A DNA stretch of 51,388 bases, counting the filler, from Jimgerdemannia flammicorona (lineage: Eukaryota): the NCBI GenBank assembly GCA_003990765.1. It is 2 parts of 2 records of this genome, joined end to end, with 100 filler letters (N's around TTAATTAATTAA, not from the genome) between each part and the next. Parts side by side here need not be neighbours in the genome. Positions count along the whole stretch, not along the records: positions 1 to 25,651 come from RBNJ01000806.1; 1 more part is not named here. One strand, 5' to 3'. The position numbers and the translations under genes are program-made. The notes below the pieces were generated by a model that had not been told where the DNA came from, searched no databases, and saw only the letters and a list, made by a program, of their open reading frames with translations. Shown here one piece after another: positions 3,700 through 35,700 of this stretch. Position 1 is the stretch's first letter. Each line of letters opens with the position of its first letter.

Positions 3700-4160
3700 T
3701 ATATAGTATCACTTCAGCTTGAGATTGGATAAACAATAGATATATACTGCCCCAGCCTGAGTTTGGGTGAATGATGGACATATATATACCACCTTAGCCT
3801 AATATATTACTTCAGCTTGAGATTAGGTGAATGATAGTCATATATACTGCTTCAGCTTGAGATCAGGTAAATGATAGATATATATACTACTTTAGCTTGA
3901 GACCAGGTGAATAATAGACATATGCTGCCCTAGTCCAATATATTGCTTTAGCTTGAGATTAGATGAATGATGGACATATATACCACTTCAGTTTAAGATC
4001 AAGTGAATGATAGTTATATGCCACCCCCATTCAATATGCTGCTTCAGCTTGAGATTGTATGAACAATGGATATATATATTACTTCAGCTTGAGACTGGGT
4101 GAATAATAGACATATATTACCCTATTCTGATATACTACTTCAGCTTTGAGATTGGATTGG
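3700..4160 (+). repeat. Tandem array family B (~40/60-bp units, core CTTCAGCTTGAGATTGGGTGAATGAT)
   Basis: Repeated cttcagcttgaga(t/c)(t/c)(g/a)g..gaa..at..acatat units; boundaries approximate. Confidence 0.85.
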
Positions 4161-4449
4161 AGCCAGAATATACTTTATTACTATAATTAATTTCTTAAAC
4201 TAAATAACTAATTAATCAATCAACTATATTATATTATAGAAATTATATAAGGAATATATTCTCCATGAAAAAGATTTTCTTCATCTATATACTGATTATA
4301 GACTTACTACTGATCAAAATACTAGTTACTAATAACTGATCTCAAAAATTGAACATAGATGGGCACAGACTAAGATAGATATTCAAGAATGATATATATA
4401 TTTAGAAGTATATTTAATAATTACAATTTATTATTTTTATATATCTTAG

Positions 4450-6800
4450 ATTAAAAACATATACTATGCTATTGATTTTGAAGTACAAAAGCTACTTGAA
4501 GAAGAACAGACTATAGTTGAATGTGATCTTTTAGATAAAGAAGATGAGATTGCAGAACAAGAGGTATTTAATAGACAAAATATAGTATATTCTGATGCAA
4601 TTCTTGCAGAAGCTACTTTAGAAGAATCTAGAAAAGCTATTAGATTTGACTTTACTCAATATGCAGCTCAAAAAGAGATTTAGGATATTGCTCTATATAC
4701 TCTTACTCAATATACCAGATAATATATATTAGTAATATTGATTAAATATATATATATAAAGAAGATTTATATTTATGAGATTTTTTATTAAATATATTTA
4801 GAATCTAGAATCTATATGAAGAATTTCAAGCAATACAATATAAAGAGCTCTTTAATGAGACATTTAAGCCTAATATTATAACAGAATAAACATCTTCAGA
4901 TATTTGTATATATATATATATATATTTCAACAATGTGATTTTCTAGACAAAACAGATAAATAAGGTAATAAGCTTGGCTGTCAGAGTAGAACAGTAAGTT
5001 TTATTTATTATTTATTAAATATTTTTATTAGTCAAATTATTAAGTTATTAAATAATTTATTTATATATTTAAATTATAGTATTTAACTACAATGACATTT
5101 TACTCAGCTGTTAGCTGAAATTATAATAAAATTATACAATAGTCTAATCAAAGATGTTACTTTGATTTAATACAAGGTGGATGAAACAGGAATCCATTTT
5201 TATCTTGTGAAGTTAGTAGATATATATGTAGCCTTTATAAGTGAAAAGCTCAAAATAGTAAAGCTATAGAGTCTGTATATATATTGAAGCTTGAAGATAT
5301 GAAATATTTATATAATTATTTTTAGAAAAATAGAGCAATTAATGTCTGCCAATATGTGGGTATTATTATATTATATTTTACATTTCTCTGGTATATTAGA
5401 AATATGTAGATATAAGAATAAAGACAATGGGTACATTAATGAGTTTAGGGCAGATATAGATCAATAAGTTTGGAGCAGATGTCTAAAATAGTCACCTGAT
5501 CTTAAGCTAAAGTGGTATATCAGACTGGAGTGGTATATATCTATCATTTACTTAGTCTCAAGCTGAAGTAGTATATATATCTATTATTCATCTGATCTCA
5601 AGCTGAAGTGGTATATATATCTATCATTCATCCAATCTCAAGCTAAAGTTTCATATTAGGCTGATGTAACATATATGTATCTATCATTCACTTAGTTTTA
5701 AGCATATATGTCCATCTTTTACCTGATCTCAAGCTAAAGTACCATATTGGACTAGGGTGACATATATCCATCATTCATCTAATCTTAAGCTGAAGCAGTA
5801 TATCAGACTGAGGTAGTATATATCTATTATTTACTCAGTCTCAAGATGAAGTAGCATATATGTCTATTATTTACTCAATCTTAAGCTAAAGCAGAATATT
5901 AGGCTGGGGTGGTATATATCTATATTCACTAATCTCAAGCAGAAGTAGTATATTGGACTAGGGTGATATATGTCTATTATTTATCTGATTTCAAGCTAAA
6001 GTGACATATTGGGCTGAGGTGACATATGTTCATTATTTATTCAATCTTAAGCTAAAGTGACATATGTTCATTATTTACCCAATATCAAGCTGATATGACA
6101 TATATCCATTATTCTCCCAATCTTAAGCTAGAGTGATATATATCTATCATTCTCTTGCAAATTTCATAGGTAATGGAGATAATTACTAATAAGTTTTACA
6201 ATTATATATAATATCTATTTTTCTATCTATGTCTTCTTTGTAGAGAGAAAGTAATGAAGATTGATCAAATAAATATTGAATATAGAAAAAGTATATTATT
6301 TTAATATTGAATTTTTACAAAACAGCTCAAAAAGATGATATGTAAGTATAAAAGTATATATTTAAAATGAGTAAACAATCAAGATTATTACTATAATATT
6401 CATTTTATTTTTAGAATAATAGGTGTTAAGCCATTTGTTCTTCATCAAAATGACCACAACAAATATCTCTATTCTCTGTATGTATTTCTCAGTTAGAGAC
6501 ATTTCCATGGAACTTCTGCTGGCTTTTTTTTTCTACTAATAGATTGAATTAACTGCCTTAATTTGCACTACTCACTGAGCTACAAATCTTTTAAAGATCA
6601 GTTTGAATATAATTTGCAAGCTATTGAAATTGCAAAATGGTATCTATTTGATACTTATTTTGATATAGTAGATATCAATACTATTACTACTATATAGACC
6701 TATTAAAGCAAATTAGTGAAATTTGTGAATGGTATGGATAGAGCAAAGAATTTGATAATATAACTATTTTTTGTTATTTGAAAAATAAATATAATATCAA
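4450..6800 (+). pseudogene. Intron-containing tyrosine recombinase remnant (Crypton-like YR transposon), heavily C>T/G>A mutated
   Basis: Manual translation, reverted residues in brackets: 5176-5320 GG*NRNPFLSCEVSRY..L..*KAQ....ES....KLEDMKYLY; 6221-6260 FYLCLL[R]RE[E]V (catalytic Arg box); ~6300-6337 LILNF[R]KTAQK; 6422+ GVKPFVLH; ~6647-6682 F[G]T[H][S]..[RRGGC]QY; ~6721-6780 ICEW.G[W]SKEFDNITIF[R]YL (catalytic Tyr). Motif order matches fungal YR domains. Not in the ORF track because of stops. Confidence 0.72.
5495..6150 (-). repeat. Tandem array family B, inverted, inside an apparent intron of the YR pseudogene
   Basis: Repeated tcattcacccaatctcaagctgaagt, the reverse complement of the family B core. 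Confidence 0.85.
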
Positions 6801-6934
6801 ATAAAGGATAAGGGACAATTTTACCTGACCTTATAGAAAGAGAAGATTTGAAGAGAATTAGTATATAAATAATTTAATAAATATAATTATTATGATGAGA
6901 GTAAATTCTGACCATAATAAATGAGATTTCATAT

Positions 6935-8330
6935 AAGATTAGGTAAAAGATGGATATATACTACTTCAGTTTGAGATTTGATAAATGATGGATATATGCC
7001 ACTTTAGCTTGAGATTGAGTAAATGATGAATATATACTGCCTTAGTCTGATATACTATTTCAGCTTAAGATTGGATGAATGATGAATATATGCTACCTCA
7101 GTCTGATATACTGTTTCAGCTTAAGATTAGATGAATGATAGACATATACTACTTCAGCTTGAGATCAGATGAATGATGAATATATACTGCTTCAACTTAA
7201 GATTAGGTGAACAATATACATATGCCACCCTAGTCCAATATGCTGCTTCAGCTTGAGATTAGGTAAATGATATATATATACTATCTCAAATAGTATACAA
7301 ATACTACTCTAGCCCAATATGCCACTTCAACTTGAGATTGAATAAATGATATATATATACTACCTTAGTTCAATATATTGCTTCAGTTTGAGATTAGGTG
7401 AACAATGAATATATACATATACCACTTTATCTTGAGATTAGATAAATGATAAACATATATCACTCTAGCCCAATATATTACTTTAGCTTGAGATTGGGTG
7501 AATGATAGATATATATGCCACTTTAGCTTGAGACTAGGTGAATGATAGACATATTTTGTTACAGCTTAAGATTGGGTGAATAGTATACATATGTTGTCCC
7601 AGTCCAATATGCTGCTTCAGCTTAAGATTAGGTAAATAATATATATATATCACTTTAGCCTGATATGTCACTTTAACTTAAGATTAGATAAAAAATAGAC
7701 ATATATACTATATCAGCTTGAGATTAGGTGAAGATATATATATGCTACTCTAGCCCAATATATTGCTTCAACTTAAGATTAGGTAAATGATAAACATATA
7801 CTACCTCAGTCCAATATACTACTTTAGCTTGAGATCAGGTAAACAATGGACATATATACCACTTTAGCTTGAGACCAGATGAACAATAGACTTATACTAC
7901 TCCAGTCTGATATGCTACTTTAGCTTGAGATCAGGGAAATGATGGACATATTTCACCCCAGTCTGATATGTCACTTCAGCTTGAGATTAGATAAATGATG
8001 GACATATATACCACATCAGCTTGAGACCAGATGAACAATGAACATATACTACCTCAGTTGGATATACTGCTTTAGCTTGATATTGGGTGAATAATAGATA
8101 TATGCTACCTCAGCTCAATATACCACTTTACCTAACCCTAGCTCTAATTATTATCTGGACATAAATACAATGGACAGCTTGAAGTACAGATGGTCAGATG
8201 GTTACATTAGATGTGAATACTTAGGAGAATAATGAATATATATCACTTTTGCTTATGATTAGGTAAGCTACTTTAGCTTAAGATTGAATAAATAATGGAC
8301 AGATACTACTTCAGCTATGAGATTGGGTCA
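6935..8330 (+). repeat. Long tandem array family B
   Basis: More than 20 copies of the cttcagcttgagatt core in the same orientation as 3700-4160. Confidence 0.88.
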
Positions 8331-11848: not shown

Positions 11849-13117
11849 TGTGACAAACCAAGACGTACTACCCGAATCATATCTTTACCAGATGACGCGA
11901 ACAAGATGACGTGAACACTCAGCTTAGTAACCAGCAACCATTTGCTGCGGAAACTGTATAAATAGCCAGACATACCAGAAAGGGTCTGTTTACCTGTACA
12001 GACTCTGTACACTGTACAGACTCTGTACACTGTACAGGTCCTGTACACCGTACAGACTCTGTACACCTGCCATAAGTAGCAGATCTATAGTTAGCCACAT
12101 AGTAACCAGATAGCAACCAACTTGTATAAATTACCCCAGTGGCGAGAGTGAATAAAACCTCAGTCCAAAATACAAACACCAAAGAAGTCTCTAAAGATTG
12201 AGCATTGGTCCCCTTTCCACTCCGGTCCACTTTCCGATACAAAGCTTGAAGATTTGCCGCCTAAGTTCAAGGAGAACTTCGCTGCCTTTGAAGAGAAACC
12301 CTTGGTTTGCTTGCCAGCTAAGCCTGAAGATTCCGCCTTTTCCGCCTTTCCAAGAAAGCTGCCTTGCTCAAGCCAGTTTCTGATGCAACTTCGCAGTGAT
12401 TCGTCGCGCAAACGAAGCCAGTCTTTGATGTAACTTTGCCAAGAGACCCTTTCCCAAAGAATGCCGCCAGTTTTATCTGCCATATTCCCAGTTAGAGCCG
12501 CCGATTCAGGAAGAATCCACGCCATTGTATTCCCAGAAAGAGCCATCTGAGTTATTTCCCAGAAACCTGCCGATTCAGGAGAATCCGTGCCATCCGACGT
12601 TTTCGAGTTATCCACATCCCCAGAAAACCCATGCCATCTGAGTAGTATTCCCAGTTGAAGCCAAAACTGCGACATCCGAGTTATTTGTCATTCCCAGTGA
12701 GCCCAAGTTATCTAGTTATCTGTCGCCATACATTCCCAGTGAGCCAAATCGAGTTATCCGCCAAGTTATCAGAACGTCCGCATAAGGAGAACCTTTAGAT
12801 TGTCAGACCATCACACCCAGAGATCGCATACTTTTGGAGATCGTCGCGCTACACAGAGATCGTCACCCAGAAATCGCTACACAAAATTGTACCATTCCCA
12901 GTTGACCCAAGAAGGAAGTCCATTCACACACAAATCGCCGCTACACCCAGAGAACCGTCCCAATAAGGAAATCGCTCGCACAGTATCCAGATCTTGACTA
13001 TTATACCGCTAAACACCAAGAACATTTTGTTGCTTTTAACAAAGTAACTGGGGGCTCAAGCCAAACTACATCAACCCCCAACCTTGTAATTTGCCTCCAT
13101 TGAGCCAGCACGTTACA
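11849..13117 (+). repeat. 5' LTR (1269 bp)
   Basis: Starts TGTGACA, ends CGTTACA, followed by the PBS; homologous to 20715-22016. Confidence 0.93.
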
Positions 13118-13119
13118 TT

Positions 13120-13137
13120 TGGGGGCTCAACTGGGAA
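13120..13137 (+). promoter_or_regulatory. Primer-binding site, tRNA-Pro type (TGGGGGCTCAACTGGGAA)
   Basis: TGG begins 2 nt after the LTR end. It resembles the MLV tRNA-Pro PBS TGGGGGCTCGTCCGGGAT, and its reverse complement looks like a tRNA T-stem/acceptor/CCA end. Confidence 0.8.
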
Positions 13138-16100
13138 GATTTCAAAATCAATGTGACTTTTCAGCTCACAAGAACCCACAGTCAAACTGGATACATTTGA
13201 TACAACACCAACCTCTGCTACTACAGGAGAACCAGTCATCACTAGCATCTGGACAGGAAGAGAAGTAATCACCTCAAGACTTGCCAACTACCCAGCATCA
13301 GAAGGATCTCAACCAGAAGCAGGAGGCAGTACAGCGCGAAATCCTCAGCCAGATCAACCAGATCAATCAGATCAACCAGACAATACAGGCAGCCCTGCTG
13401 GAGATTTTGGAGAACTTGCACAAGAACTAGAAGACTTTATTACCCGGACCCAACATCTTACAGCCAGATACCCCACACCAGTCCCACCAATTTCACCAAT
13501 AGAACCCCTACCACAACCTCTTGGAGAACCAGAAGTAGCTCCTACAAGGATACCTAGGTCTACTCCACCTCACCCAAGAACGAGGACACCATCTTCAAGA
13601 TATCCAAGCACCCGGGCCTCTAGTGACAGTTCAGAAAGTGAACCAGAATCAGAATCCGAATTTGAACCAGAACCAGAAGAAAGTGACGAAGAAATGGCCA
13701 CCTCATTGCCAATCTTTGCAGGATACCCAGAGGAAGACCCCAGAGAATTCCTTGATGGAATTGAAGGAATTGCAGCCTTGAGGAATCTCTCAGATGAAAG
13801 GAAAATCGCCATCTACAAAGCTCAGCTCAGAGAACCAGCCAGAGGGATTTTCCATCGAACAGCAAACAACCCAGATTCCGAACTAGCAAGGCAGATACAA
13901 GCAGCAGTCTCCTATGAGCTAGAATATCAGGCCATGGTCTACTGGCTCATAGAAAAGTATGCAGGAAATGAAACCTGCCACAAGGCTCAAGAATCCATTA
14001 TGGGAATGAAGATGAATCTTGGAGAATTACCCAGAGCCTTCTTCACAAGAATCCAGAAGAGAATGCACTCTGCCGGGTTCAATGCCACCAACCAGGACAT
14101 CATAGGTCCAATGACCTTCATGAATGGAATTCCCCCGAATATTGCCCAGCATGTCCGCACCCTAGGCATCAGAAGGTCTGAAGAGCAGGTAGATGCAGCC
14201 TAAGGATTCTTTGATGTCAGGCAAGGAACTACCTAGAGTGACCATGACAAGAAGGAAGATAAAGAAGATATCCTGGTCAAAGCCCTGCAAGGACTCCTTC
14301 AAGGACAAGAAAGGTCTGAAGAAAGAAGGCCAGCCAAGGAAGGAAAAAAGGACAGAAGCAAAATTCAAGACCTCAGCTCCAAGTTAGACCAATTGGTTGG
14401 ACAAATTGAAAAACTCACCACATGCGAAAATCAGGACTACCAAAACAACAGAGGATACCCACCACAGAGGAGCCAAGGTTATCCACCCAGAGATAATAGG
14501 AATTACCAGCAAGAAGAAAGAAGGTACCCAGCCCGAGACAGAGCCCAAGTCCAATGCTTCTACTGTGGACAATTTGGACACTATGCCACTGAATGTGACA
14601 ACAAAAGAAGTGACCGAAGGGACTCAGAACCACCAAACTGAAGGAATGACACCCAGTACAAGAAGACTGAAGCCCATCCTGTTGAAGATTTCGAGGAAGC
14701 AAGCAATAGTGAAGACTACAGTGACCTAGACTTGTACCCTACCAAGGTTACCACCCGAAAGACAGTCTACCCAGCAGAAAAAAGAAAGAGACCTGTGGGA
14801 AGACCATCCAGGAATATCAGTAGGAGAATTATTCAAGAAGAAGATGAAGAACATGAGGAGGAACAAGTTGAAACACCTCCCCGAACCCCTTCACCTTTTG
14901 TGCCCAAGACAAACGAGTTGCTACCAGAAGATGAAGAAATAGAACAAGAAGAACGGGAACCTGTTGCTCCAAAGCCTAAAAAGAAGTACACCCCGAAGAC
15001 CATGCCTAGGGATATTTACAATGAAGCCTGGCAGAAGATTCAAGAAGCCAAGATGGAAGTTCCTCTCCTGCAGTTCTTGCAACTGATACCAGCTGGAGTC
15101 CAAAACAAATTGCTGAGAACCACCAGGTCTAGCACTGACTGAGTTCCAATCCCACAGCAAGAACCAGCCTCCATTCCTGTCCAAGCAGCTGAAAGACATG
15201 TCAGCACCTACTTACATGGAGACATTGGAGGACAAAAAGCAAAAATCCTCATAGATACAGGAGCAGCTGTCTGTGTCATCGCCAAACGATTCCTGGATAC
15301 CCTCCAATGGCCCATTGATGGACCATCCAACCTCAGCATCATAGTAGCAGATGGAGCCTGAACTCAACCCCTTAGAGAAGTACGAAATATCACCATCTCC
15401 CTTGGACACATTCAGTTCTCTATCCCCAAAGCTGTTGTCACCGAAGCTGTCACCTATGACATGATTCTTGGCACCAACTGGATGAAGGAAATGAATGCAG
15501 TTGTTGATATTGGCCAACAAGTACTCAAGTTTGACTACCGAGGCAAGAAGTATAGAGTTAAGGTGACCAGCTATGAGCAATCGAAGAAGAAGAAGAAGGT
15601 TACCATTCAAGAAGAGTATGCCAGCAGTGAGGATTCTACTACAGAAGAAGAAGAAGAATCTGAAGATGGAAATGATCCCAGACTCAATCCATGAATTAAC
15701 CTGGTGGACGACAGACCAGAAGACAATGTGTGGGCTAAGAACACCATCCCCATCACTATTGGAGCCATTGCAGGAGAAGCCAAAGGATGCCCCACATACC
15801 TCAAGAGACACAAGTGCCCCGAACACTCCTCCAAGATTATGGGAAAAAGGAAATCGCCTGGTACAGCTTGCCCAGAATGCAGAAGAAAGAAGAAGAAGTG
15901 CAGACATATTCCAGAAACACCTGCGACCAAAGTTGCAGAAGTACAAGCAATTTGGGGTCAAGAATCATCTGAGGAAGAAGAAACTTCTGACCAAGAAGTT
16001 CCTGAACAAGAAGCACCTGGTGAAGAAGAAGTTCCCGAACTCATCCCCTGGGATGACCCTCGGTGGACACCACCTGAAGACAATGACCCCTGGAATACAG

Positions 16101-16882
16101 AGGAAGGACCCAGTACCATCACCATTATTCCCAAGAAAGAAACCCACCAAGAGAAAGCTTTCCGGCTAGGAAGATGTCCACATCAAATGGTCTTCCACTC
16201 TCCCCGAGACTACTGCTATCAGTGCCATCTGTTGGACCAACAAGAAAGACAGAGACCCCAGAGGCCAGAACCCCCAACTACTCTTGCACAATCCACCACC
16301 TTTCAAGAAGTCACCACAAGGTTACAAAGTCGATTTAGGGGACAAGGCTTCTTCACCTGAACAGAAATATACCCCTTGTCTACCCTTCCCCCAACCTATG
16401 ATCAAGATGGGTACCGATTTCCAAGACAACAAGAGATAAATAGCCAAGAACATCATTTCTGGGCAATGGGATATTGCAACCATGGAAGACACCCTGATTG
16501 CCGAGACTGCAGAAATCAGAAGATTCACCTCAGTCATGATGTTGCAGTACACACCCTGAAGAAAGGAGATAACCGAAGCCAGATCCGAAAAAGCCAGATT
16601 CGAAAAAGCCAGACCAAGAAGCCTGGAAAAAGAATTCTCAAGATCTACGATTTGGGAGAAGACATCCTAGCTCTTATTAGACATGCAACCCGCCAAGGAT
16701 GGGCAGAAGATGCCACCAACTTCATGGAAGCCCTTGATCCTACAGGAAGAAGGGGAATCAATTACCTCCGAGACCCCTCTACTGGAGCCAGATGGCCACA
16801 CCTCAACCTTAGAGCTTGGAGGCTTTCTGCCAGTGGAGCTTCAGCCTTAGGGAAGCCCGAACTCAGCGAGGATATTGCTCAG

Positions 16883-17284
16883 TATGCCCTGCTGCACCCC
16901 AAGGCCAAACCCCCGACCAAAGCCCACCCAGAGGATGTAGGATATGATCTTCACAGCCTGGAGGATGAAAATATCAAGCCAGGAAAAACCTTCATGGTCA
17001 GAACAGGAATAGCCATACAGCCACCCCAGGGAGCTTATATTCAACTGACCTCAAGGTCTGGACTTGCCAGACAAGGGATAACTGTAGAAGGAGGAACTAT
17101 TGACCCTGGATATACAGGCGAAATCAAGGTTATCCTACACAACAGCAGTACAGAATGGCACCGAATCATTAGAGGACAGAAGATTGCCCAAGCAGTCTTC
17201 ACGAAGGTCAAGACCCCACAGTTACAGGAAGTCTCTGAACTAACTGAAGGAACAAGACAAGCTGAAGGATTTGGAAGTTCAGAC
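16883..17284 (+). other. dut: Trimeric dUTPase domain within ORF1
   Basis: All five motifs are present: VGYDL, SRSGLA, GTIDPGYTGEI, GQKIAQ and RQAEGFGSSD. Confidence 0.95.
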
Positions 17285-17634
17285 AGGAAAGAGGTACATC
17301 TCCTTCAAGTCAACCACCTCAAGAGGAATGTTCCCCAGCAAGTATACCGGCAACCAGTCAGACTGCACAAGAATCTCATCCTGGAGCCTGGAGAACAAAC
17401 TACCTTCGAAATATTTGTACCACCTGACCCCAGGAACCTTTTCTTCAAACCCAAGGAAGACATCCCACACCTGGACATAGAGGGACACACATTCCCTGAC
17501 AAGATGAACCCAGTGCACTCTCGAGGAACCAACCAAAGTTGGGAGACCATCATCTTGCCAAAAGGAACCATCATAGGACACCTGGTGTCTTTTCTCAACT
17601 GAACTCATAGGGAAGTTTATGAACTAAACCTATC

Positions 17635-17682
17635 GGGAAATGGCAAAAGGTCCCAGAAGAAAGGAAAGGCCCCTCTGCGACC
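17635..17682 (+). promoter_or_regulatory. Putative -1 programmed ribosomal frameshift signal
   Basis: G_GGA_AAT heptamer (17635-41) in ORF1 phase, a 7-nt spacer, then a stem GGTCCCAGAAG/CCTCTGCGACC (9 of 11 pairs). It lies in the 70-nt overlap between ORF1 and the -1 RT frame. Confidence 0.7.
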
Positions 17683-19099
17683 CAGGAGACAGTGAAGCCT
17701 TCCACCAACATTGGAGAAGAATTGACACCTCAACAACAGCAACAACTAGTAGAACTCCTCAACAAATATCAAGATATTTTCACCACCGATTTTGGCAACC
17801 TGCCATACAATCCATCATATCATCACAGCATAAATACAGGAAGTGCAACACCCATCTGGCAGAAACCCTATAGAATACCCCATCACTTGAAAACATTTGA
17901 AAAGGAGCACATCCAAGAACTCTTAGACAATGGAGTCATCCGACCCTCTACCAGCCCCTGGGCCAGCCCTATACTTATTGTACCAAAGAAAGGAGGATGG
18001 AGACTCTGCGTGGATTACAGGAAACTCAACTCAGTCACTGAAAAGGATGCTTATCCTTTGCCCAGAATCGATGACCTTTTGGACCAGTTACAAGATGCCA
18101 GATACTTCAGCAGTATGGACCTCTTTGCAGGATTTTACGAGATCCCCATGGACCCCAAGGACATTCAAAAGACAGCCTTCCTTGCCTTAGGAAAACTGTT
18201 TGAATACCTCTGAATGCCCTTTGGACTTTGCAATGCACCCCCCACCTTCCAGAGGATGATGAATTCAGTCTATGCCCCCTTGATCCACCACTGTCTGATT
18301 GTATACATGGATGATTCCAACATCTATTCAGCAAATTTCGAAGAACACCTGCACCATCTAGAGGAATTCTTCAAGCTCACCCGCAAGAATCACTTGAGAC
18401 TGAATGCAAAGAAATGCTACTTTGGAAAACAGAAACTCGAATTCCTTGGATTTGTGGTCTCCAAAGAAGGAACTCATGCAGACCCAAAGAAAACCGAGAA
18501 GATCAACAATTGGCCAGTACCCAAGACTCCGAAGGAAACACTATCATTCCTGATGCTAGTATCCTACTACAGAAGGTTCATCAAGAATTTTGCCCAAATC
18601 GCTGCCCCAATCCAAATCCTTCTCAAGAAAGGAGTACCATTCAAATGGACAGAATCACAGGAAAAAGCCTTCAGAGAACTCAAGAACCTCATGACTACAG
18701 CACCAATCCTTATGTGCCCCAATCTACAGAAGCCATTCATCCTGTACACAGATACTTCCAAAGATGGCCTAGGAGCAGTTCTAGCCCAGGAAGGACCTGA
18801 CCAACAGCACCATGTGATAGCTTATGCAAGCAGGGCTACCAATCAGCAGCAGATGAACTATGGCAGCACCAAACTGGAATGCCTTGCAGTCATATGGGTG
18901 GTCACTCTGTTCAAGCATTACCTCATCAGAAAAAGGTTCACCCTGATCACAGACCATGCAGCCCTCAAATGGCTATTCAACTGCAAGGAACCTGCCGGAA
19001 TTCTAGCCCGCTGGATCCTTATCCTCCAGGATTACCATCATTCACAAAGCAGGGAAAGCTCACAACAATGTTGATGTACTTTCCCGCCAGCCCCAATGA
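17635..19099 (+). pseudogene. pol: ORF2: reverse transcriptase - RNase H
   Basis: Motifs: SPWASP, WRLCVDYRKLN, YPLPRIDDLL, [R]MPFGLCNAP (TGA at 18211), YMDD 18304-15, YTDTS, LECLAV, TDHAAL. After a small deletion at ~19033 the tail TIIHKAGKAHNNVDVLSRQPQ* is shifted by one frame. Confidence 0.93.
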
Positions 19100-20163
19100 A
19101 CTAGAGGAAGGGTGTCCTGAGGAACCACACCTTAAAGGAAGCTCCTCAGACTATCAAAGCACAAGAAGATCTTATCTGAAAAGAACATCAGAAAGCCCAC
19201 CAAGGACAGACAAGCACAGAAGACAAGATTCGAAAACAATATCAACATTGGCCCCACCTCAGAACTCAAGTCCGGGACATCATCCAGAAATGTGACATCT
19301 GCCAGAAGTACCAAGGAAAGAAGAACTATCAAGCCCCTCTGCAACCGATTCCCCCACCCACTCACATCTTTCAAAGATGGGGAGTAGATGTAATTGGACC
19401 TCTACCAGTTACACCAAGAAGAAACAAATACATCCTTGTATTTGTAGAACATCTGACCAAGTGGCCCAAGGCTTTCCCAATGGAAATCGCAGATGCCTTA
19501 ACCATTGTGGGCCTCCTCCATGGGCTCACACTCAGATATGGACCCCCAGAAGAACTCATCTCTGACCGAGGCACAGAATTCATCAATAACATAATCACAA
19601 GTTATGCCCGAATTCACAAGATCCACCTCAAAAGGACCACATCATACCACCCACAGACCAATGGCATGACAGAAAGAATGAACCAGACCATCAAGAAAGG
19701 ACTTGCCCAAGTCAACCCTACTAATTGGGACCTCTGCTTACCTGAGATCCTATGGGAAATTCGGAATACCCCTGCCACATCTACCAAACAAAAGCCATTC
19801 AAAATGATGTTTGTCAAGAAAACCAGAACTGCTGACTATGAGAATCTTGGAGACCTCCTCAAGAAGGCAGAACAGTTACGAAATCAAGCCCAAGGACAGA
19901 TTATCAAAGCCCAGGAAAGACAAAAGAAGTACTATAACCAAAAACAGAAAGATCAGGAGATCAAGATTGGAGATCAAGTCCTAGTCTGGAGAAGTATGAT
20001 TGAGACAAACTTTGCCACCAAACTAGAACCGAAATGGAAAGGACCTTATCTTGTACACAATATCAGAGGAACCAGCATCTATTTAAGAAGCATGGATGGA
20101 TGAACCCTGAGAACACCAGTACATATCAATCGCCTCAAAGTATATTTCCCTTCTACACTATGA
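19096..20163 (+). pseudogene. ORF3: integrase (HHCC, DDE, GPY/F; no chromodomain)
   Basis: Motifs: EHQKAHQG...CDICQK; WGVDVIGPL; ISDRGTEF; GMTERMN; KWKGPY; VHINRLK. Internal stops at 19102, 19177 and 20101. The ATG 19096 start is inferred. Confidence 0.9.
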
Positions 20164-20675
20164 GCCAAAGGATTGATCAGCGCCTCCAGACATTGGTCCT
20201 TAGCTCCTTCCAAGCCCTACCTGTTCCTCTACCTCAATTCGGCCAAGCCAATGGGAACTCCCTTCAAAGGATCTAAGTTCATCAAGAAAATCTCACCTTG
20301 GCCAGACGCCTACTACAAGTCCATCAACTGCAGGCCTATTATGCAATCGGTGAACAATTGCAGAACCTCCCAGCCCCAGAACAGACCTACATCAGAAATA
20401 CTATGGGTCTGACCAGAAGAGACACTACTGCTGCAGACAGACTATACACCATTTACAAATGAAATGTCACAGCCCTGATACAGGCGCAATTCTCTCTGAA
20501 TGACATCCAAGGAATGAACCCTGTTACCTACCTGAGTATCATCAACTCTGTCGAAATCCTCTTCTCTGAAGAAGAAGAAGAGCCCCTAGAATGGAGTAAC
20601 CCCAGTACAGACAACGAAGATGATGGAACAGGTATAGATGCAGAAGCAGCCTATGCTTATTGGAATGATGACTGA
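20160..20675 (+). pseudogene. ORF4: unknown 171-aa protein in the env position
   Basis: ATG 20160 to TGA 20673-75 in one frame with two revertible stops (TAA 20274, TGA 20460). It fills almost all the space between integrase and the PPT. Confidence 0.72.
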
Positions 20676-20679
20676 AGAA

Positions 20680-20714
20680 TAGTCTGGGACAGACTACCCT
20701 TCAGTGGGGGCTGA
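20680..20714 (+). promoter_or_regulatory. Pre-PPT hairpin (TAGTCTG-GGA-CAGACTA) and short PPT-position tract (AGTGGGGGCTGA)
   Basis: Perfect 7-bp stem at 20680-20696 and a G-run immediately 5' of the 3' LTR. Confidence 0.6.
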
Positions 20715-22016
20715 TGTGACAAGCCAAGACATACCACCTGAATCATATCTTAACCAGATGACGCGAACAAGATGACGTGAACACTCAGTCTAGTAACCAA
20801 CAACTGTTGCTGTGGAAAACTGTATAAATAGCCAGACATACCAGAAAGGGTCTGTTTACCTGTACAGACTCTGTACACCATACAGACTCTGTACACTGTA
20901 CAGGTCCTGTACATCGTACAGACTCTGTACACCTGCCATAAGTGGCAGATCTATAGTTAGCCACATAGTAACCAGATAGCAACCAACTTGTATAAATTAC
21001 CCCAGTGGCGAGAGTGAATAAAACCTCAGTCCGAAATACAAATATCAAACAAGCCTCTAAAGATTGAGCATTGGTCCCCTTTCCACTCCGGTCCACTTTC
21101 TGATACAAAGCTTGAAGATTTGCCACCTAAGTTCAAGGAGAACTTCGCCGCCTTTGGAACTATTGGTTCGCTTGCCAGATAAGCCTGAAGATTTCCACCT
21201 TTTCCGCTGCATTAGAAAGCTGCCTTGCTCAAGCCAGTTTCTGACGCAACTTCGCAGTGATTCATTGCACAAACGAAGCCAGTCTTTGACATAACTTTGC
21301 CAAGAGACCCTTTCCAAAAGAACGCCGCCAGTTTTATCCGCTGTATTCCCAGTTAGAGCCACCGATTCAGGAGAATCCGCGCCATCTGAGTTAATTCCCA
21401 GTTAAGCCGCCGTTTTCAAGAAACCCGCCAAATCTGCATCATCCACCACTTTCGAGTTATCTGCATTCCCAGAAGAGCCCGATTCGGAAGAACTCACGCC
21501 ATTCGAGTAGTATTCCCAGTTGAAGCCGAATCCGTGACATCTGGGTTATTCGTCATCCCCAGTGAGCCTGAGAAGAATCCACCACCAGCATTATTCCCAG
21601 AAAGGAGAACCCGCGCCTTACATTCCCAGTGAGCCAAATCGAGTCGACCGCCAGAAATCGCATACTTTTGGAGATCATCGCGCTACACAAAGAAATCGCC
21701 CGCTACCCAAGAAGGAGAACTGCTAAATTATCAGACCGTCACACCCAGAGATCGCATACTTTTGAAGATCGTCATGCTACACAAATTGTACCATTCCCAG
21801 TTGACCCAAGAAGGAAGTCCATTCACACACAAATCGCCGCTACACCCAGAGAACTGTCCCAAAAAGGAAATCGCTCGCACAGTATCCAGATCTTGACTAT
21901 TATACCGCTAAACACCAAGAACATTTTGTTGCTTTTAACAAAGTAACTGGGGGCTCAAGCCAAACTACATCAACCCCCAACCTTGTAATTTGCCTCCATT
22001 GAGCCGGCACGTTACA
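20715..22016 (+). repeat. 3' LTR (1302 bp)
   Basis: TGTGACA...CGTTACA; colinear with the 5' LTR at both ends, rearranged in the middle. Confidence 0.93.
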
Positions 22017-24009: not shown

Positions 24010-25560
24010 ATAACTTATCAAATAAAATAAAAATAAAAGAGAGATATAATTATTAAGGCAGATAGCCAGACACAATATATAATTTATCAAATATAATAAA
24101 AATAAAAGGAAGATATAATTGTCAAGACAGATAGCCAGACACAACATATAATCTATAAAAATAAATAAATAAAAAGTAGAATCACTGAGGCAGATAGCTA
24201 TATATGAAATATTATCTATCAAATAAAATGAAAATAAAAGAGAGATATAATTGTCAAGGCAGATAGCCAGATATGAAAATAAAAGAGAGATATAATCATT
24301 GAGGCATATAGTCAAAAATGATATATAACTCATCAAATAAAATAATAAAAAAGAGATATAATTATCAAGACAGATAGCTAGACATAACATATAACCTATC
24401 AAATAAAATGAAAATAAAAGGGAGATATAATTATTGAGGTGAATAGCCAGACATGATGTATAACTCATCAAATAAAATAATAAAAGTGAGATATAATCAT
24501 TGAGGCAAATAGCCAGACAAGATATATAACCAATCAAATGAAATAATAAAAGGAAGATATAATAATTAAGGTAAATAGCTGGACACAAAATAAAACTTAT
24601 TAAATAAAATGAAAATAAAAGAGAGATATAATTGTTAAGACAGATAATCAGATATAAAAATGACCCATCAAATAAAATAAAAATAAAAGAGAGATAGAAT
24701 CATTGAGACAGATAGCCAGACATAATATATAGCCTATCAAATAAAATAATTAAAGGGAGAAATAATCATCAAGGCAGATAGCCAGACATGATATATAACT
24801 CATCAAATAAAATAATAAAAAGGAGATATAATCATTAAGATAGATAGCCAGATATGAAATATAACCCATCAAATAAAATAAAAATAAAAGAAAGATATAA
24901 TCATCAAGACAGATAGTCAGATATGAAAATAACTCATCAAATAAAATGAAAATAAAAGGGAGATATAATCATCTAGACAGATAGCCAGACATGATATATA
25001 ACCTATCAAATAAAATAATTAAAGAGAGATATAATCATTGAGGCAAATAGTTAGATATGATATATAACTATTAAATAAAATAATAAAAGAGAGATATATT
25101 CATTGAGGTAGATTGCAAGATATGATATATAACTCATTAAATAAAATAATAAAAGGGAGATATAATCATTGAGGCAGATAGTTAGACATAATATATAACC
25201 AATCAAATAAAATGAAAATAAAAGAGAGATATAATAATTGAAGCAGATAGCCAGACATAATATATAATCCATTAAATAAATAATAAAAGAGAGATATAAT
25301 CATTGAGGTACATAGATAGCCAGATATGAAAATAATCCATAAAATAAAATAAAAATAAAAGACATAATTATTAAGACAGATAGCCAGACATGACATATAA
25401 CCCACCAAATAAAATAATAAAAAGGAGATATAATTATTGAGGCAGATAGTCAGACATAATATATAATCTATTAAATAAAATAATAAAAGAGAGATATAAT
25501 CCTCAAGGCAGATAGTCAGATATAAAATATGATCCATTAAATAAAATGAAAATAAAAGGA
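24010..25560 (+). repeat. Tandem array family C, 66-69-bp unit, roughly 20+ copies
   Basis: Unit ~GAGATATAATCATTGAGGCAGATAGCCAGACATGATATATAACCTATCAAATAAAATAATAAAAGA; spacings of 69 and 66 measured at 24353, 24422 and 24488. Confidence 0.9.
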
Positions 25561-25651
25561 GTCTTTTCAAGTGGTTAGGTATAAAGAAGATGAGCTGCAA
25601 GAAATAAAGAGTCAGGGAATGAAGCAGAGAGAGTAAAGACTCCTTAAAAAA

Positions 25652-25751
25652 NNNNNNNNNNNNNNNNNNNNNNNNNNNNNNNNNNNNNNNNNNNNTTAAT
25701 TAATTAANNNNNNNNNNNNNNNNNNNNNNNNNNNNNNNNNNNNNNNNNNNN
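25652..25751. other. Artificial assembly gap/linker (44 N + TTAATTAATTAA + 44 N = 100 bp)
   Basis: Symmetric N runs around a six-frame-stop linker. Confidence 0.95.
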
Positions 25752-26177: not shown

Positions 26178-29100
26178 GATTGGCACGCATCGAGGCGAGA
26201 AATCGCTGAAGATGGGCCTGTTGTGCGAGTTGCGGGTATTGCGCGGCCAGTTGGGCAGCAAAGGCAGGATTGGCCTGGGCAGAGGCTACGATGGCGTTGG
26301 CGGAGGGGTGCATTTGTGGTTGCGAGTCATTGCCTGTGGGGACACCGGTGATCGAGTGGGCAACGGAGGAGACGGGCAAGATATCAGATTTTTGGACGCT
26401 CAATAATCTCCTCTCACCAAGTTCAGGGGGGCGGCGTTCATGAACACAACAATCGCTAACCTGAGGGTTGTCCTCCTGGTACGGTGACCCCAAACCTCTG
26501 TAACGGTGCCGACACCGGTGGCCTTCCACCAGCCGCTGCTGCAGCCAACATTGCCATCTGTGAGATACGTGGGGGTAATACAAATGTCAAACATCAACGC
26601 GACAAAGCAAAATATAATTCCACAATTGATAAAGATGGCAACCAACCTGTTGCTGCTGCCGCATCATAAGCGCCGCCTGTAACTGCTCCGGCGGCAGAGT
26701 CCTCGTAGCCGCAGGCGACAACCGATTGATGGGCAACTGGCCCGGTTGTTGAGCTTGTATTCCTGGTGCAGATTGTTGTCCTGGTGCGCCGGGCGGCCGC
26801 ACCATCGGTTTGTTCTGCGGAGATGCTACAGGGATGCCACGCCCGATGGCGGCTTGCGGCGGTCGGACTTGTTGCACGAGCGGGTGAGTCATGGGGATCG
26901 CACCTGGATGCGGTGGACGAGCTATCGGAGACTGGTGACAAAGTTAGAGAGAAATGAGAGAAATAAAAATATTGTTCGAAGTACGTATAGGTTAGGGGTT
27001 ATATCTTATGTTTACAAGGCTAATAAAGAGAAGTACGCGGTACTATAGCAAGAGGGACGTTTCCGAGAGACATGTACATTTGCCTGCGCTCCACTAAGCG
27101 CGTACGCCGCCATGTTCTGTCGCTGCTGTTCCATGAGGGCCTGCGCGATTTGCCTCTCCCGCTGGTGCTTCATCATGCTCAATTCCATGGGTGAGGGTAG
27201 TCGTTGTCCGGTGGAAGACGTGCCGTGCGCCTCGATAGTACTCTTGGGCGCTGGTGCAGCTACTAATCCGAAAGCGTTCGCGGAAAATGTTTCAGTGGAG
27301 CTGCACAGAAGTGTGCATATGAAATGATTCAACAGGTGTGTATACACCAATTAAGTTTCATAATGTGCCCATCGACGCGATGAAAGAAAGAAAGAAAAAA
27401 TCGTACCCGATGGCTTTTGCGCATGTTCTCTCTTTTTCTGCGTCTTCTTTATGGCCTCGAAAATGCTATACTGCCTCTGCTTCCTCCGCATACTCTCAAC
27501 TCGTGGCATCGCCTTTTTAAGCGAATCTTTCTTTTGCCTTGCCTGCAATGCGAGCGCGGCACTAGCAACAGTGGGGGAGGGAGGTGTTGACAGGTTCGAT
27601 GAGGCATTGAGTAGATTATTGGGCAGGTTGCCCAGTCCGAGGGGAAGAGGCCGAACAGGAGTCACGGGTGTTGTTGGCTGCGATGTTGATGTAGAAGACG
27701 AGCCCGGTGCTGACGCGGCGGTGGGAGTGGTGGTACTCTCCTTTTGCTTGTAGCGCTCAAAGCAGTCCCACGACACGCGGTGCTCGCCCGTAATGGGCGC
27801 CCGGATTGAGTTCATTGAGTCGCAAATCAGATCCCAGTTGTACTGGAATGGGCGGATTAGGGACGTAAGCAAATTGTCGTCCTCTTCTGTCCAATTCAGG
27901 GGCGTTCGCTGAAGTGCTGGGTTCGGTGGCGCAGGCTGTGGGATTTGCAGGCCAGGGAGATCTTTTGATTTCTTCGGTGCAAAGATCGCTGTTTCGAAGC
28001 AAACCGAGATTGTCAGAATGATTAAAATAAAATAAATAAATAAAAATGAAATGGCCGCGTTGCCCAAAGACAATTAAGACAACTCACGAGAAATCAGAGG
28101 CGCCGTATCATATCGCATAAATGACGCCAATGGCTTCACAGGCTCATCTCTCAACCTTTCCTCTTCTGCATCCATATTTCCATCATCCCAGTCTTCCGGC
28201 CGCCGCCTCTTCTTACCCGCAATCGCTGGCTCTTCCCTTCTGACGGCCTTCCTCGCAATGAACTTTGTGATGGGCACCACGCGACCGAACTCTACCTCGT
28301 CCCAATACGCATCGTTATCTTCTGGCTTGGGCGGCTCGTACATTGGTAAGTCTGGGAACAGAGACTGCGGGTCCAAAAGCATGACGTCAGCCATCGCCGT
28401 CAGCATGAAAATGGTCTTGTCAGACTGCAGGTCGACGATGGCGGACCGATACTGATGAATTAGGTTAGGTGATACCGGCGGGGGCATCGACAGCATATCC
28501 GAGGGCATGACGGCCTTGCCCTTGAGTTTGAGCGTCGTCTTGGACTCCTCGAGACCGTCGATGGCCATGGCATCGATTAGCTCGTTGTCAGATTGCGACC
28601 GGAGCTTTAACGGTTTGAACGCATCCGTCGACTCCAGCTGCGGTTCGGCCTTGACCACGGGCTCCTTTGAGGCCAGTCCGAACATGGCGTCCGATTTTAT
28701 TACAGATGAGAAATCCACGGGCGTCTCTGGCTCTTCGACCTTGAGCTCGGGTTCGTGGGAAGTTGCGGAGCTGGCCTCCGCGGTTACGGTTAACGAAATA
28801 TCCTCCATCTCGTCTACATCTTTGCTTGTCGGCGCATCCCCCTCGACTTGGTCTTGCTCTAGATCCATCATCTCGTCTTCGGGATGGAAAATGCGTGGGC
28901 TTGGGCTCCGCCGCTATGGGCAACAAAGTAAGATCATTGTTGATAATAATAATAATAACAAAACACAAAGGCACTGAGGAATATGCCACAGAAAACGCAT
29001 GCACTTACCCTCACACACACATTCTGCTTGTCATCTGCCTCGTGCCATTCCATTACCCACCGCGCCACCTCGTATGCCGTCGCAATTTTCCATCTGCGCT

Positions 29101-32763: not shown

Positions 32764-35700
32764 ATGGGTCCGACCGGCGATACGCGAGAAGCAAATGAGG
32801 AAGTACTTGAGAGCACAGGGGTACGTTGCTCAATTTTCTTTTTGACAATCCTCGGTTGGCAAATGGTGAAGGGGCTGCTAAAACAGCCAGGATTCCCAAT
32901 TTTACGTGTGCAAAAGTTTGTGAGATTTCACGGCGAAGCCCTTTGGTGTCCGCTCTCCATTACGTTAGTGCCAACCTCGTAACGCCACCAGTTTGACAGG
33001 CGTCTCAGGAATTACAGGGGCACGCGTATCAAATCCCAGATGAATCTTGCAAAGCGCCACAATATGCTTGATGCGCTACCACCAACGCATTCACTCTCTG
33101 TTTAATTAGACCACGGAGAAAGATTGCAAAGCCCAACGATCCCCTTCCACCCCTGACTCCACCTGCTCCACGACCATCAGTGCTCGACAGGCAAGTCCCA
33201 CTGACTTTGCCCCCCGGTGGTGTCACGGAAATCCGGACATCCTCGCAGCTGAAGCACCAACAAGGTAATGTCCGGCTTTGACATTTTTATTACTGATGCT
33301 GTCTTATCCGCGGCGCTTGTCTGACCCCCCCTCCATCTTATGTCGTAATTCCAGAATCCGTTGTTCCTTCTGCGCGAGACATGTATTCCCCATCGAACTA
33401 CGATCCCAAGAAAGACCATGGCAACACAATCGCTCGGCAAACTCGTTCTCGGCAAACGGTGTCTCACTTCGATCCCGCAAGGTTTGTGATTAGTTCTCTA
33501 TAGTGTCACTGATTGTATCAGACTTCATAAGTCTCCTAGACTCATATGCGACTTACCTCTATTTCTATTAGCCATGATGTATACGGCAGGCCGACGGTGT
33601 TGTTTGGTAATGATTACCGTAGCGTCCAGATAGTTCCAGCCACTTTCGTACCTCGATCAATCCCAACGAAAGAAGAAATGGCGAGAGGGAAAGATGTATA
33701 TCTTGATGGCAAGTGCTCGCATAATGTTTGGCTGTTCAAGCGATTTCCGGTACATAAAATTTAGTTGTACCGTTACTCATCAAATTTCAAACACATTTTT
33801 CCATTAACAGATGTCGCCGATAACCTTCTTAAGCAAGCTGCTGACGGTAATTATTTTGTATGCTAATACTTGGTGAAAGCATGACAAAAGGCTTTCTCCA
33901 GACACTTATAGCACATATTTTTGCGTTTGTGGTATGCTTTAGCGCGCTATGGTTATTATCCCCCAACGTTCCGTGGTGGCGATATTTCACCTGCTATTCC
34001 GATCTACGAAGAAGACGCATTTTTGCAAGAATACAACTCCACCAGAAGCACGCATAAATACGCCGCTGGGGAGTCGGCAGAAATGCCAGCGACTGGTCGT
34101 AAAAAGTTACATGTTGACGAAAAAGCCTTTGGATACGTAGGAAGACCGGGCGGCAGAAAGTACAAACATACCGAGGTTTGGAAGGAGAAACGCAAACAGC
34201 AAGTGAGGAAAGTGGACAGGAGCACGTCGCCAATGCCACCTGAAAAGGTAAGCACTTTTGACATCCAAGATTACCTGTGTCGATCACTGCTGCTACTGGC
34301 TAGACTTGATAGTTAATCGAATTGTTTTTTGGCGCAATGCGTCTTCCTTAATTTAATTTAAAACAGCCAATCGAGAAACATGCTGGGTATAAGCGCACTA
34401 TGGCAGAGCAGCCAGAACAGATATCTCAGAAACGCTCGCGTAGTATAGCCAGGACAGCGTCACTAATGTATGAGGCTGACGGTGAAAGCGGCGAGTCTGA
34501 GGACATCGTGTTTGAGCGGGAGTATCTGGCGAAATTCAATCGGCCACCACGGAAGAGGAACATAACGGAATCGGTTGGGCAAAATGCCGTTCGGAGCGAC
34601 GGGATGAAGAAGCAACGGATGGGGCCCATAATAATGCCCTCGGATTCTCTATGGAGGGTGAAGTGTTTATTTATTTATTGACTAGATGTTTATCATCACT
34701 ATGTTGAGAGCGTCAACGGAAATTCCCGCGGTTTCTTATACCAGTCTGACTTCATCTTCACTGTTTCTACACAACGCATTAATACGCGCTTACAGCCGGA
34801 TGAGAAGGAGAATGTTGGCGAGTCTTCCGCTCCGTTAGCTTCCGTCTACACACCCACGCCCACGCCCGTGTTAATACCGAAGGTTCCCAAACGAGCCACT
34901 GACCACAAGGATACATCTGTCGCTGTGCAATCGCCGATCCCAAACACACGCGGTCGCATCAAGCTCTCCGGCACTCCCGCCAAACCGAGCACCTATCGTG
35001 CCCAAACCGTTCTGAAAAATACGATCATGAGCAAATCCTATGGAAAGGCAGTTACTCCTTTACGATATCGAGTTCCCGATGGAGAAGAGGAGGAAAAGGA
35101 GGAAGAGCCAGCGGAAGTGGCGGCCGATGCTCAACGGAAAGAGAAGGATTCAAGCCCGCTCACCAAACCGACACTGCTTGAACCTACTACTAAAGAGACC
35201 TTAACGTTGTTGGTCGTCGATAATGAAGCTGTTGCAGAGAAGCAGAAGCCGAGCAAACAGGAAATGCCTTCGGTTCCCGAGACACCGAGGACCATGGTTG
35301 CGTCGATGGTACCATCCGCCACTACTGCTGCATCATCGAAGTTTAGTTTCAACGCCCCAATACAAAATGTCGCAGAAGAAGGGGCCCAAGTGCACACTAG
35401 CTCGAATACCAATGAACCTGCCAAGGCATCCGTGATTCCATCGATCTTTGCTCCGCCAGCGGTCATCCCTGACAAGTCTGACAAGATCCTGGAAAGCAAA
35501 CCACGCTTCACTCTGCCCCGTGGACCGAAGGCCGAGGGCTCGGCGGCCTCTGCGACTCTGAAGTTTAATTTCGGCACGTCGACGGGTGAATCAGTGAAGA
35601 CTCAGGCGTTTAATTTCAATTTCAATGGATCATCAGCCGTCGCCCCTTCGACTAATAATGATAAACCAGCTTTCTCGTTCACTGGCGCCTCAACAGCTAC

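Follow-up and report, generated by a model that had tools for sequence, protein, structure and literature searches.

A Ty3/Gypsy element of Jimgerdemannia flammicorona with four successive reading frames and a predicted stand-alone integrase cistron

Organization of the element

We analysed a stretch of 51,388 nucleotides from the genome of Jimgerdemannia flammicorona (GenBank assembly GCA_003990765.1), in the following denoted as the window, which joins parts of two records (positions 1 to 25,651 correspond to RBNJ01000806.1). The window harbors an LTR (long terminal repeat) retrotransposon of 10.2 kb on the plus strand (11849-22016). Its interior consists of four reading frames that tile by three -1 steps: ORF1, encoding Gag, protease (PR) and dUTPase; a frame for reverse transcriptase and RNase H (RT-RH); a separate frame for the integrase (IN); and a short ORF4. 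A preliminary description, made from the sequence alone, had reported this tiling, and translation and Pfam searches reproduce its coordinates. A first Pfam reading, of ORF1, identifies zf-CCHC, an aspartyl protease and a dUTPase (E 1.4e-27); a second identifies RVT_1, RNase H, Integrase_H2C2 and rve. The domain order Gag(CCHC)-PR-RT-RH-IN, with IN located after RT-RH, is that of the Ty3/Gypsy elements (Metaviridae). Pfam finds no chromodomain (PF00385) in either IN or ORF4, and the element hence does not classify as a chromovirus.

All four frames are located on the plus strand. ORF1 (13151/13157-17695, window frame 2, 1513 codons, stop TGA at 17693-17695), as delimited by translation, Pfam and motif coordinates, consists of a Gag CCHC motif (14555-14596), the protease (Pfam 15218-15487, DTGA at 15245-15268), three Cys/His motifs (15785-15826, 16172-16228 and 16466-16510) and the dUTPase (16904-17281). 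None of the three Cys/His motifs between protease and dUTPase has a Pfam match. A search for relatives of ORF1 among proteins of 832-2648 aa returned just four distant matches, at the level of the dUTPase. The RT-RH frame (17623-19099, window frame 1, -1 relative to ORF1) comprises RT (17980-18456) and RNase H (18646-19035) and overlaps ORF1 by 24 codons (17623-17695). The IN frame (19096-20163, -1 relative to RT-RH) comprises the H2C2 domain (19159-19314), rve (19369-19653) and a GPY module at 20032, just past which it ends. ORF4 (20160-20675, -1 relative to IN) has 171 codons and an acidic C-terminus, and ends 40 bases before the 3' LTR.

The 5' LTR (11849-13117) and the 3' LTR (20715-22016) have TG...CA ends and were delimited by direct repeats and alignment of the LTRs with each other. 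Both are only 88.8% identical (1082 of 1218 aligned bases, with 93 transitions and 43 transversions), and the insertion is therefore old; no clear target-site duplication was found at the LTR ends. Two further features were read from the sequence, namely a putative primer-binding site (13120-13135) that starts with TGG two bases after the 5' LTR, and a putative polypurine tract region (20701-20714) with a G5 run directly before the 3' LTR. ARAGORN identified no tRNA in the window with which the putative primer-binding site could be matched. A G5CT motif is common to the primer-binding-site candidate (13120-13130) and the tract before the 3' LTR (20703-20711).

Conservation of the four frames in related copies

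The comparison is based on natural copies, namely the window copy and three metagenome contigs obtained from one metagenome scan: L001 (covering window positions 16300-20433), L002 (18379-20679) and L003 (18953-20513). The contigs have 79-80% nucleotide identity to the window, with 87-89% amino-acid identity in IN. The ends of ORF1, RT-RH, IN and ORF4 as well as all three -1 steps recur in these relatives, although they are diverged by about 21%. The stop of RT-RH is located at the same codon in all four copies (three times TGA, once TAA), as is the stop of IN; the terminal stop of ORF1 (17693) is TAA in L001, at the same place. RT-RH is open throughout in L001, with no internal stop. The Cys/His motif at 16466 (C-x-H-x2-H-x2-C-x2-C) is likewise kept in L001. 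In the read layout no indel occurs at 17500-17760, 19036-19633 or 20012-20610 among the rows listed, which are 12 of 22.

For each of the four ORFs, the ratio of nonsynonymous to synonymous differences per site (pN/pS, Nei-Gojobori) is far below 1 in the proposed frame only. The tail of ORF1 has a pN/pS of 0.17, versus 1.06 and 1.65 in the other two frames. RT-RH has values of 0.07-0.17 over 6 pairs (0.08-0.26 for its 20-codon tail), with the other frames mostly at 0.6-2.3 and extremes of 0.27 and 5.8 in pairs with L003 that span 26 codons. For IN, 5 of the 6 pairs have values of about 0.09-0.12, the close pair L002/L003 alone reaching 0.34; the other frames of IN are at 1.2-1.7, or 0.5-0.8 for L002/L003. 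For ORF4, pN is 0.16-0.25 against a pS of 0.58-0.92 in the proposed frame, and pN/pS is about 0.7-3.6 in the others. Between the lineages of the family pS amounts to about 0.4-0.9, with the proteins kept. Because the layout recurs in relatives and the constraint is limited to the proposed frames, the comparison establishes, at the level of sequence, that the four-frame layout with its frame steps is ancestral to the family, functional, and kept under purifying selection. The four frames and three junctions are hence conserved in L001-L003, a point that the preliminary description had proposed to test on family copies.

The window copy itself is decayed. It contains 14 internal stops (8 in ORF1, 1 in RT-RH, 3 in IN and 2 in ORF4), 10 of which are TGA, and an extra TGA (13154) directly follows the proposed ORF1 start ATG. 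The preliminary description had attributed the stops to C>T changes, whose reversal would open all frames. In the relatives the corresponding codons are CGA at 17600 (in ORF1, read in L001), 18211 and 20101, CGA or CAA at 19177, CAA at 19102, CAG, CAA or TAA at 20274, and CAG or TGA at 20460. The attribution fails at 19102, where the TAG of the window faces CAA in all three relatives and hence is not derived by a single C>T change. The reversal is also insufficient for RT-RH, which is broken by the TGA at 18211 and by a hitherto unreported 8-bp deletion after approximately 19033-19035 that must be crossed as well; it shifts the last 20 codons of RT-RH into window frame 2. The 8 bases are present in L001-L003, in one X2 contig and in two X1 loose ends. 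The region upstream of 16300, with Gag, PR and the ORF1 stops located there, lies beyond the reach of the relatives' sequence and was assessed from the window copy and the read-layout tables.

As most of the in-frame stops are TGA, a use of TGA as sense codon in the host was considered. We rejected it because the relatives show CGA at four TGA sites (with CAA in L002 and L003 at one of these), and because the stop at the ORF ends is TGA in some copies and TAA in others and the interior has a CpG observed/expected ratio of 0.22. The latter value, for positions 13118-20714, compares with 0.74-0.77 for the element's own LTRs (0.74 for the 5' LTR) and 1.07 for the ordinary host genes at 26001-48000. 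On the coding strand the excess of TpG (1.36) exceeds that of CpA (1.14). The contrast between LTRs and interior would not be expected from equal decay after insertion. We interpret the window copy as an insertion that has been dead for long and belongs to a Ty3/Gypsy lineage not yet described.

Given this decay, the frame changes could be attributed to the window copy alone, either as private damage or as assembly errors, and its 14 stops and private deletion would suit such an explanation. The three junction steps, however, are found unchanged in metagenome contigs of independent origin, with the 8-bp deletion as the sole private change, which leaves this explanation with hardly any probability; it is also the outcome that the preliminary description had named as contradicting its claim. 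Alternatively, the broken frames may have arisen once in a defective master that was copied in trans, with IN and ORF4 not expressed from these elements. All close copies indeed come from one family, and L002 and L003 are decayed as is the window copy. Such an origin is nevertheless very improbable in view of a pN/pS of about 0.1 for IN and a pN far below pS for ORF4 between lineages whose pS is about 0.4-0.9, at least six copies with an intact IN, and a stand-alone IN that is common to a clade extending down to 37% identity (see below).

The junction between ORF1 and RT-RH

The signals named in the preliminary description are present at all three junctions: GGGAAAT at 17635-17641 in the phase of ORF1, and ATGA at 19096-19099 and 20160-20163. 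The first of these is a slippery heptamer, G_GGA_AAT, located inside the overlap of ORF1 and RT-RH, and L001 has G_GGA_AAC at the same site. Among the 1513 codons of ORF1 there are three in-phase heptamers of the form X_XXY_YYZ (Y = A/T), one of them inside the 24-codon overlap, for which about 0.05 would be expected at this rate; in L001, with 459 ORF1 codons covered, the homologous heptamer is the sole in-phase one. G_GGA_AAC, the variant of L001, has been described as one of the shiftiest -1 sites known (PMC5009743). The first Met of the RT frame is codon 165 in both the window and L001; the frame has 164 codons without an AUG, and RT would therefore be made only as a fusion.

The assignment of junction 1 as a classical -1 frameshift signal, as already proposed in the preliminary description, is well supported, because the heptamer is conserved, the frames overlap, and the RT frame lacks an AUG; the comparison at this site comprises two full sequences (window and L001) and one gap-free X7 contig that spans 17561-17855.

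The integrase cistron

At junction 2 the ATG of IN overlaps the TGA stop of RT-RH (19097-19099) as ATGA (19096-19099). The window, L001 and L002 all have this ATG, and over 128 codons of IN it is the sole Met. IN has three internal stops in the window and none in L001. It is also intact in five additional copies from the database, with a length of 354-355 aa and a start that reads MNQRKGVP or MSQRKGVP.

Canonical frameshifting is excluded at junctions 2 and 3, as far as can be judged from sequence, because no in-phase slippery heptamer occurs in the RH tail or the whole IN frame of any of the four copies, and because the IN frame, in the window as in L001, opens no earlier than 8 codons ahead of the RT-RH stop. 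IN and ORF4 might still be fused to the upstream product by non-canonical -1 (or +2) frameshifting or by hopping at the stop, giving Gag-to-IN fusions after the manner of retroviruses that shift frame twice. In line with this, the three steps are all in the -1 direction, a fusion would solve the packaging of IN, and a hairpin is located beside junction 2. We nevertheless regard such fusions as improbable: the lack of slippery heptamers again argues against them, none of the 8 codons before the stop permits re-pairing, and the hairpin is located upstream of the junction rather than downstream.

The hairpin (19049-19087, plus strand) ends 8 nt before the IN AUG, with its arms in conserved A-G-K/R and L-S-R codons. 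Relative to shuffled sequences its fold has z-scores of -2.84 (window) and -2.67 (L001). L001-L003 retain the arms, those of L003 with a change on either side (GCG/CGC to GCA/TGC), at a CpG site in each case. As support for reinitiation of translation at this junction, the hairpin is weak evidence. Structure downstream of the two AUGA sites is no better than in shuffled sequences, and a stem at junction 3 stands out in L002 only (z -2.49, versus +0.51 in the window). A very short intron at junction 2 was also considered and rejected, since its GT/AG candidates are not conserved.

ORF4

At junction 3 the ATG of ORF4 overlaps the TGA stop of IN (20161-20163) as ATGA (20160-20163). With respect to both junctions 2 and 3, ATGA is kept in three of the four copies each, and the exceptions have ATAA. 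ORF4 has two internal stops in the window, and the overlapping AUG is its sole Met over 81 codons. It has neither a Pfam match nor a usable atlas match. A search of the whole library returned only four representatives, all short and stand-alone, including the query's own locus, and an AlphaFold (AF2) model is helical with low confidence (pLDDT 49.6). Judged by its substitution pattern, ORF4 is a conserved orphan under purifying selection. It is located where chromoviruses have their chromodomain; a role in targeting would be only a guess. The predicted start of one homologue (P0129) is placed 41 residues earlier, where the ORF4 frame overlaps the 3' end of IN, and the Met at the junction position is kept.

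A wider clade with stand-alone integrases

The intact IN of L001 was used as query against database proteins of 195-623 aa. The search returned many IN-only proteins of about 400-435 aa with 37-45% identity, on contigs of up to 18.5 kb, and several of the IN-only clusters have many members of identical length. Together with the IN ORFs of two distant members, L016 and L017, 29 IN-only proteins begin at position 1 of the integrase profile; the first residue of these stand-alone integrases immediately precedes a motif that is internal in fused elements. In the ordinary relatives L005, L007 and L008, by contrast, RH reads into IN in one frame.

A tree of IN was constructed from 83 rows, consisting of the window IN, 42 stand-alone integrases and 40 of 104 fused ones (the 20 best-scoring and 20 random); 17 proteins assigned to the class 'other' were excluded, as was every protein in which fewer than 340 profile positions were matched. 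A branch with SH-aLRT 100 separates 41 rows, including the window (39 stand-alone, 2 fused), from the remaining 42 (38 fused, 4 stand-alone). The two fused rows in the window's group, P0015 and P0062, are ordinary gag-pol proteins. Taken together, these comparisons show a predicted stand-alone IN cistron to be common to a much wider clade, known from metagenomes only.

The conservation of an AUG exactly at the IN start across this wide clade would be unexpected for a fusion of IN with upstream products, as would be the stops in all frames between the ORFs of L016 and L017. The IN ORFs of L016, L017 and L018, whose DNA was examined, all begin with a Met codon. The RT-RH ORF of L016 has a C-terminal extension of about 300 aa that is acidic and Cys-rich. 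L018, from an assembly deposited as Candidatus Glomeribacter gigasporarum, an endobacterium of Gigaspora, encodes a eukaryotic Ty3/Gypsy IN that is 37% identical to the query; it is probably DNA of the host fungus carried into the bacterial assembly, which hints at Glomeromycotina fungi among the hosts of the clade. A scan of genome contigs returned mainly unrelated transposases and ordinary retroelements in MAGs (metagenome-assembled genomes), only L016-L018 being informative, and a scan of viral contigs just IN relatives of at most 30% identity, of which L007 and L008 served as fused-pol controls. With respect to the remaining contigs, L004 and L005 are distant or decayed elements, and the match of L006 is limited to 43 residues.

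Proposed mode of expression

We propose a four-cistron element in which RT-RH is obtained by -1 frameshifting, and IN and ORF4 by AUGA-coupled termination-reinitiation, a reading to which we give even chances. The genomic RNA would carry four cistrons, each -1 relative to the preceding one: Gag-PR-Zn motifs-dUTPase, RT-RNase H, integrase and ORF4. Ribosomes would reach RT-RH by programmed -1 frameshifting on G_GGA_AAY in the overlap of ORF1 and RT, yielding a Gag-PR-dUTPase-RT-RH fusion in a minority of translations. IN and ORF4 would remain unfused, each begun at its own AUG overlapping the upstream stop (AUGA) by ribosomes that have just terminated, possibly assisted, in the case of IN, by the hairpin 8 nt upstream of its AUG. 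The dosage of IN would then be set apart from that of RT, and IN would enter the particle by binding, not within Gag-Pol. The preliminary description also stated that the lineage controls stoichiometry in this way, which is a matter of inference only. For IN and ORF4, termination-reinitiation is the best inference, and it fits because the AUGA overlaps are conserved, the starts are sole AUGs, no slippery site is found, and the wider clade has stand-alone integrases.

Several observations weigh against the proposal. ATGA alone is weak evidence, as any TGA preceded by A gives ATGA, and L003, a decayed copy, has ATAA at junction 2. In the L001-type subfamily junction 3 consists of ATAA and a 12-nt deletion, and there is no Met in the 82 ORF4 codons covered, though IN is intact. 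A sliding count of synonymous differences, of little power with only 3-4 sequences, reveals no clear dip ahead of junction 2 or junction 3. At junction 1 a weak stem begins 7 nt past the heptamer in the window as well as in L001; with z-scores of +1.04 and -0.20 the structure is no better than in shuffled sequences. L016 and L017 have, ahead of IN, an AT-rich spacer of about 100 nt in which every frame is stopped (1147-1252 in L016, 139-236 in L017), and the first ATG to follow is that of IN; a strict overlap of stop and start is therefore not general in the clade. The stand-alone and fused rows of the tree come from searches with different length limits, and fused members of the clade may be under-sampled; furthermore, a start 'M' in the database may reflect GTG or TTG calls by prokaryotic gene finders. 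Finally, a free integrase would be without an obvious route into the particle. A motif of the UGGGA type, complementary to 18S rRNA, was not found by eye near the junctions.

The main rival to reinitiation accepts the layout as real and holds that IN and ORF4 are translated from subgenomic RNAs, which splicing or a promoter within the element would supply, or through internal entry of ribosomes. Spliced RNAs are known as the source of foamy-virus Pol and retroviral Env. Three of the observations listed above speak for this rival as well, namely the spacers of L016 and L017, where the IN AUG is the first after the upstream stop, the L001 subfamily without an ORF4 AUG at the overlap, and the undetected synonymous-site constraint. 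Subgenomic expression would not, however, require the exact AUGA overlap that is found at both junctions in three of four copies. Moreover, the AG located 7 nt upstream of the window IN AUG is absent from L001-L003, and there is therefore no conserved splice acceptor. We consider the rival unlikely, though by no means negligible.

If termination-reinitiation is extended from this family to its relatives, the clade would be a widespread, undescribed and truly polycistronic group of Ty3/Gypsy elements of soil eukaryotes, possibly early-diverging fungi, that express free IN (and, in this family, ORF4) by coupled reinitiation from full-length RNA, downstream of a frameshifted Gag-PR-dUTPase-RT-RH. 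This broader reading is plausible but carries somewhat less than even probability.

Relation to known elements and viruses

In the textbook scheme, LTR retroelements and retroviruses make Gag and a single Pol polyprotein, whose fusion to Gag delivers RT and IN into the particle in a fixed ratio. A lineage that keeps IN as a cistron of its own over deep divergence breaks this rule. It raises the questions how free IN is recruited to the particle, how its amount is set, and whether ribosomes of the eukaryotic host reinitiate once they have translated about 490 codons upstream. Should the broader reading be true, no LTR retroelement before these would have been shown to use coupled termination-reinitiation, and none to uncouple IN from Gag-Pol in dosage and packaging. 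With two serial AUGA junctions, both natural, next to a classical frameshift site on one RNA, the element would also make a compact system for comparing modes of recoding. Where annotation pipelines presuppose a fused pol, such elements will be rated as degraded.

With respect to retroviruses, the MMTV type has gag-pro-pol with two -1 frameshifts, and the avian sarcoma-leukosis type has gag-pro, a -1 step, and pol. The element resembles both in its successive -1 steps, in the location of the protease (in MMTV also the dUTPase) before the shift, and in the heptamer at the shift to RT. In these retroviruses, however, all steps are heptamer-driven and IN is fused to RT-RH, whereas junctions 2 and 3 of the window element have no heptamer and IN has its own AUG.

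A dUTPase between PR and RT is not new to Ty3/Gypsy elements. It has been described for elements of basidiomycetes and bdelloid rotifers (PMC2864245, PMC5408684), and PosPlaTy3-5 of Postia placenta as well as Juno, Vesta and TelKA of bdelloid rotifers share with the window the LTRs and the order gag, PR, dUTPase, RT, RH, IN. Juno has an extra Zn knuckle before RT; in the window, Cys/His motifs are located between PR and dUTPase. Compared by description, these four elements have conventional gag and pol ORFs (plus ORF3 in rotifers), whereas the window element has PR and dUTPase in the gag frame and a separate IN. The best named RT-IN matches of the window are at most 49% identical.

Coupled termination-reinitiation at AUGA or UAAUG is described in two reviews (PMC10275272, PMC5972666) for caliciviruses, influenza B M1/BM2, the victorivirus HvV190S, the hypovirus CHV1 and SART1. 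The structured element near the restart lies upstream of it in the viruses, where the fungal HvV190S has a pseudoknot; SART1 has it downstream. As in these systems, a long ORF ends on a stop that overlaps the next start in another frame, with a candidate structure close by at junction 2; unlike them, the window element has two such junctions in series, inside the pol of an LTR element. Among retrotransposons the passages of the reviews on this mechanism name the non-LTR elements SART1 and LINE-1 only. Caulimoviridae, reverse-transcribing relatives of Ty3/Gypsy, likewise have a polycistronic RNA: closely packed consecutive ORFs on one pregenomic RNA are translated by reinitiation (PMC10275272). 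Unlike Caulimoviridae, which need a viral transactivator, the window element has LTRs and an integrase, and no transactivator gene was found in it, the searches with ORF4 included. A full-text literature search, judged by abstracts and passages and with most subscription journals and the Repbase reports outside its scope, found no paper that describes a separate integrase cistron, or a coupling of stop and start, for any LTR element.

Surroundings of the element in the window

The element is surrounded on both sides by AT-rich tandem arrays with a GC content of 25-32% (1147-2900, 3700-8100 and 24010-25600) and periods of about 17, 56/96 and 66/269 nt, a setting that looks pericentromeric or satellite-like. 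Two short runs of N beside the arrays (25652-25695 and 25708-25751) are the joining filler of the window. The other part of the window harbors an ORF with a Myb-like domain (27351-28913, minus strand) and a long Ser/Thr/Ala-rich ORF with FG repeats (34682-38161, plus strand), which is nucleoporin-like and has no Pfam match. Two ammonium-transporter paralogues (42170-43312, plus strand, and 45307-46950, minus strand; PF00909, E 1.2e-109 for the latter) are arranged tail to tail at a distance of about 2 kb.

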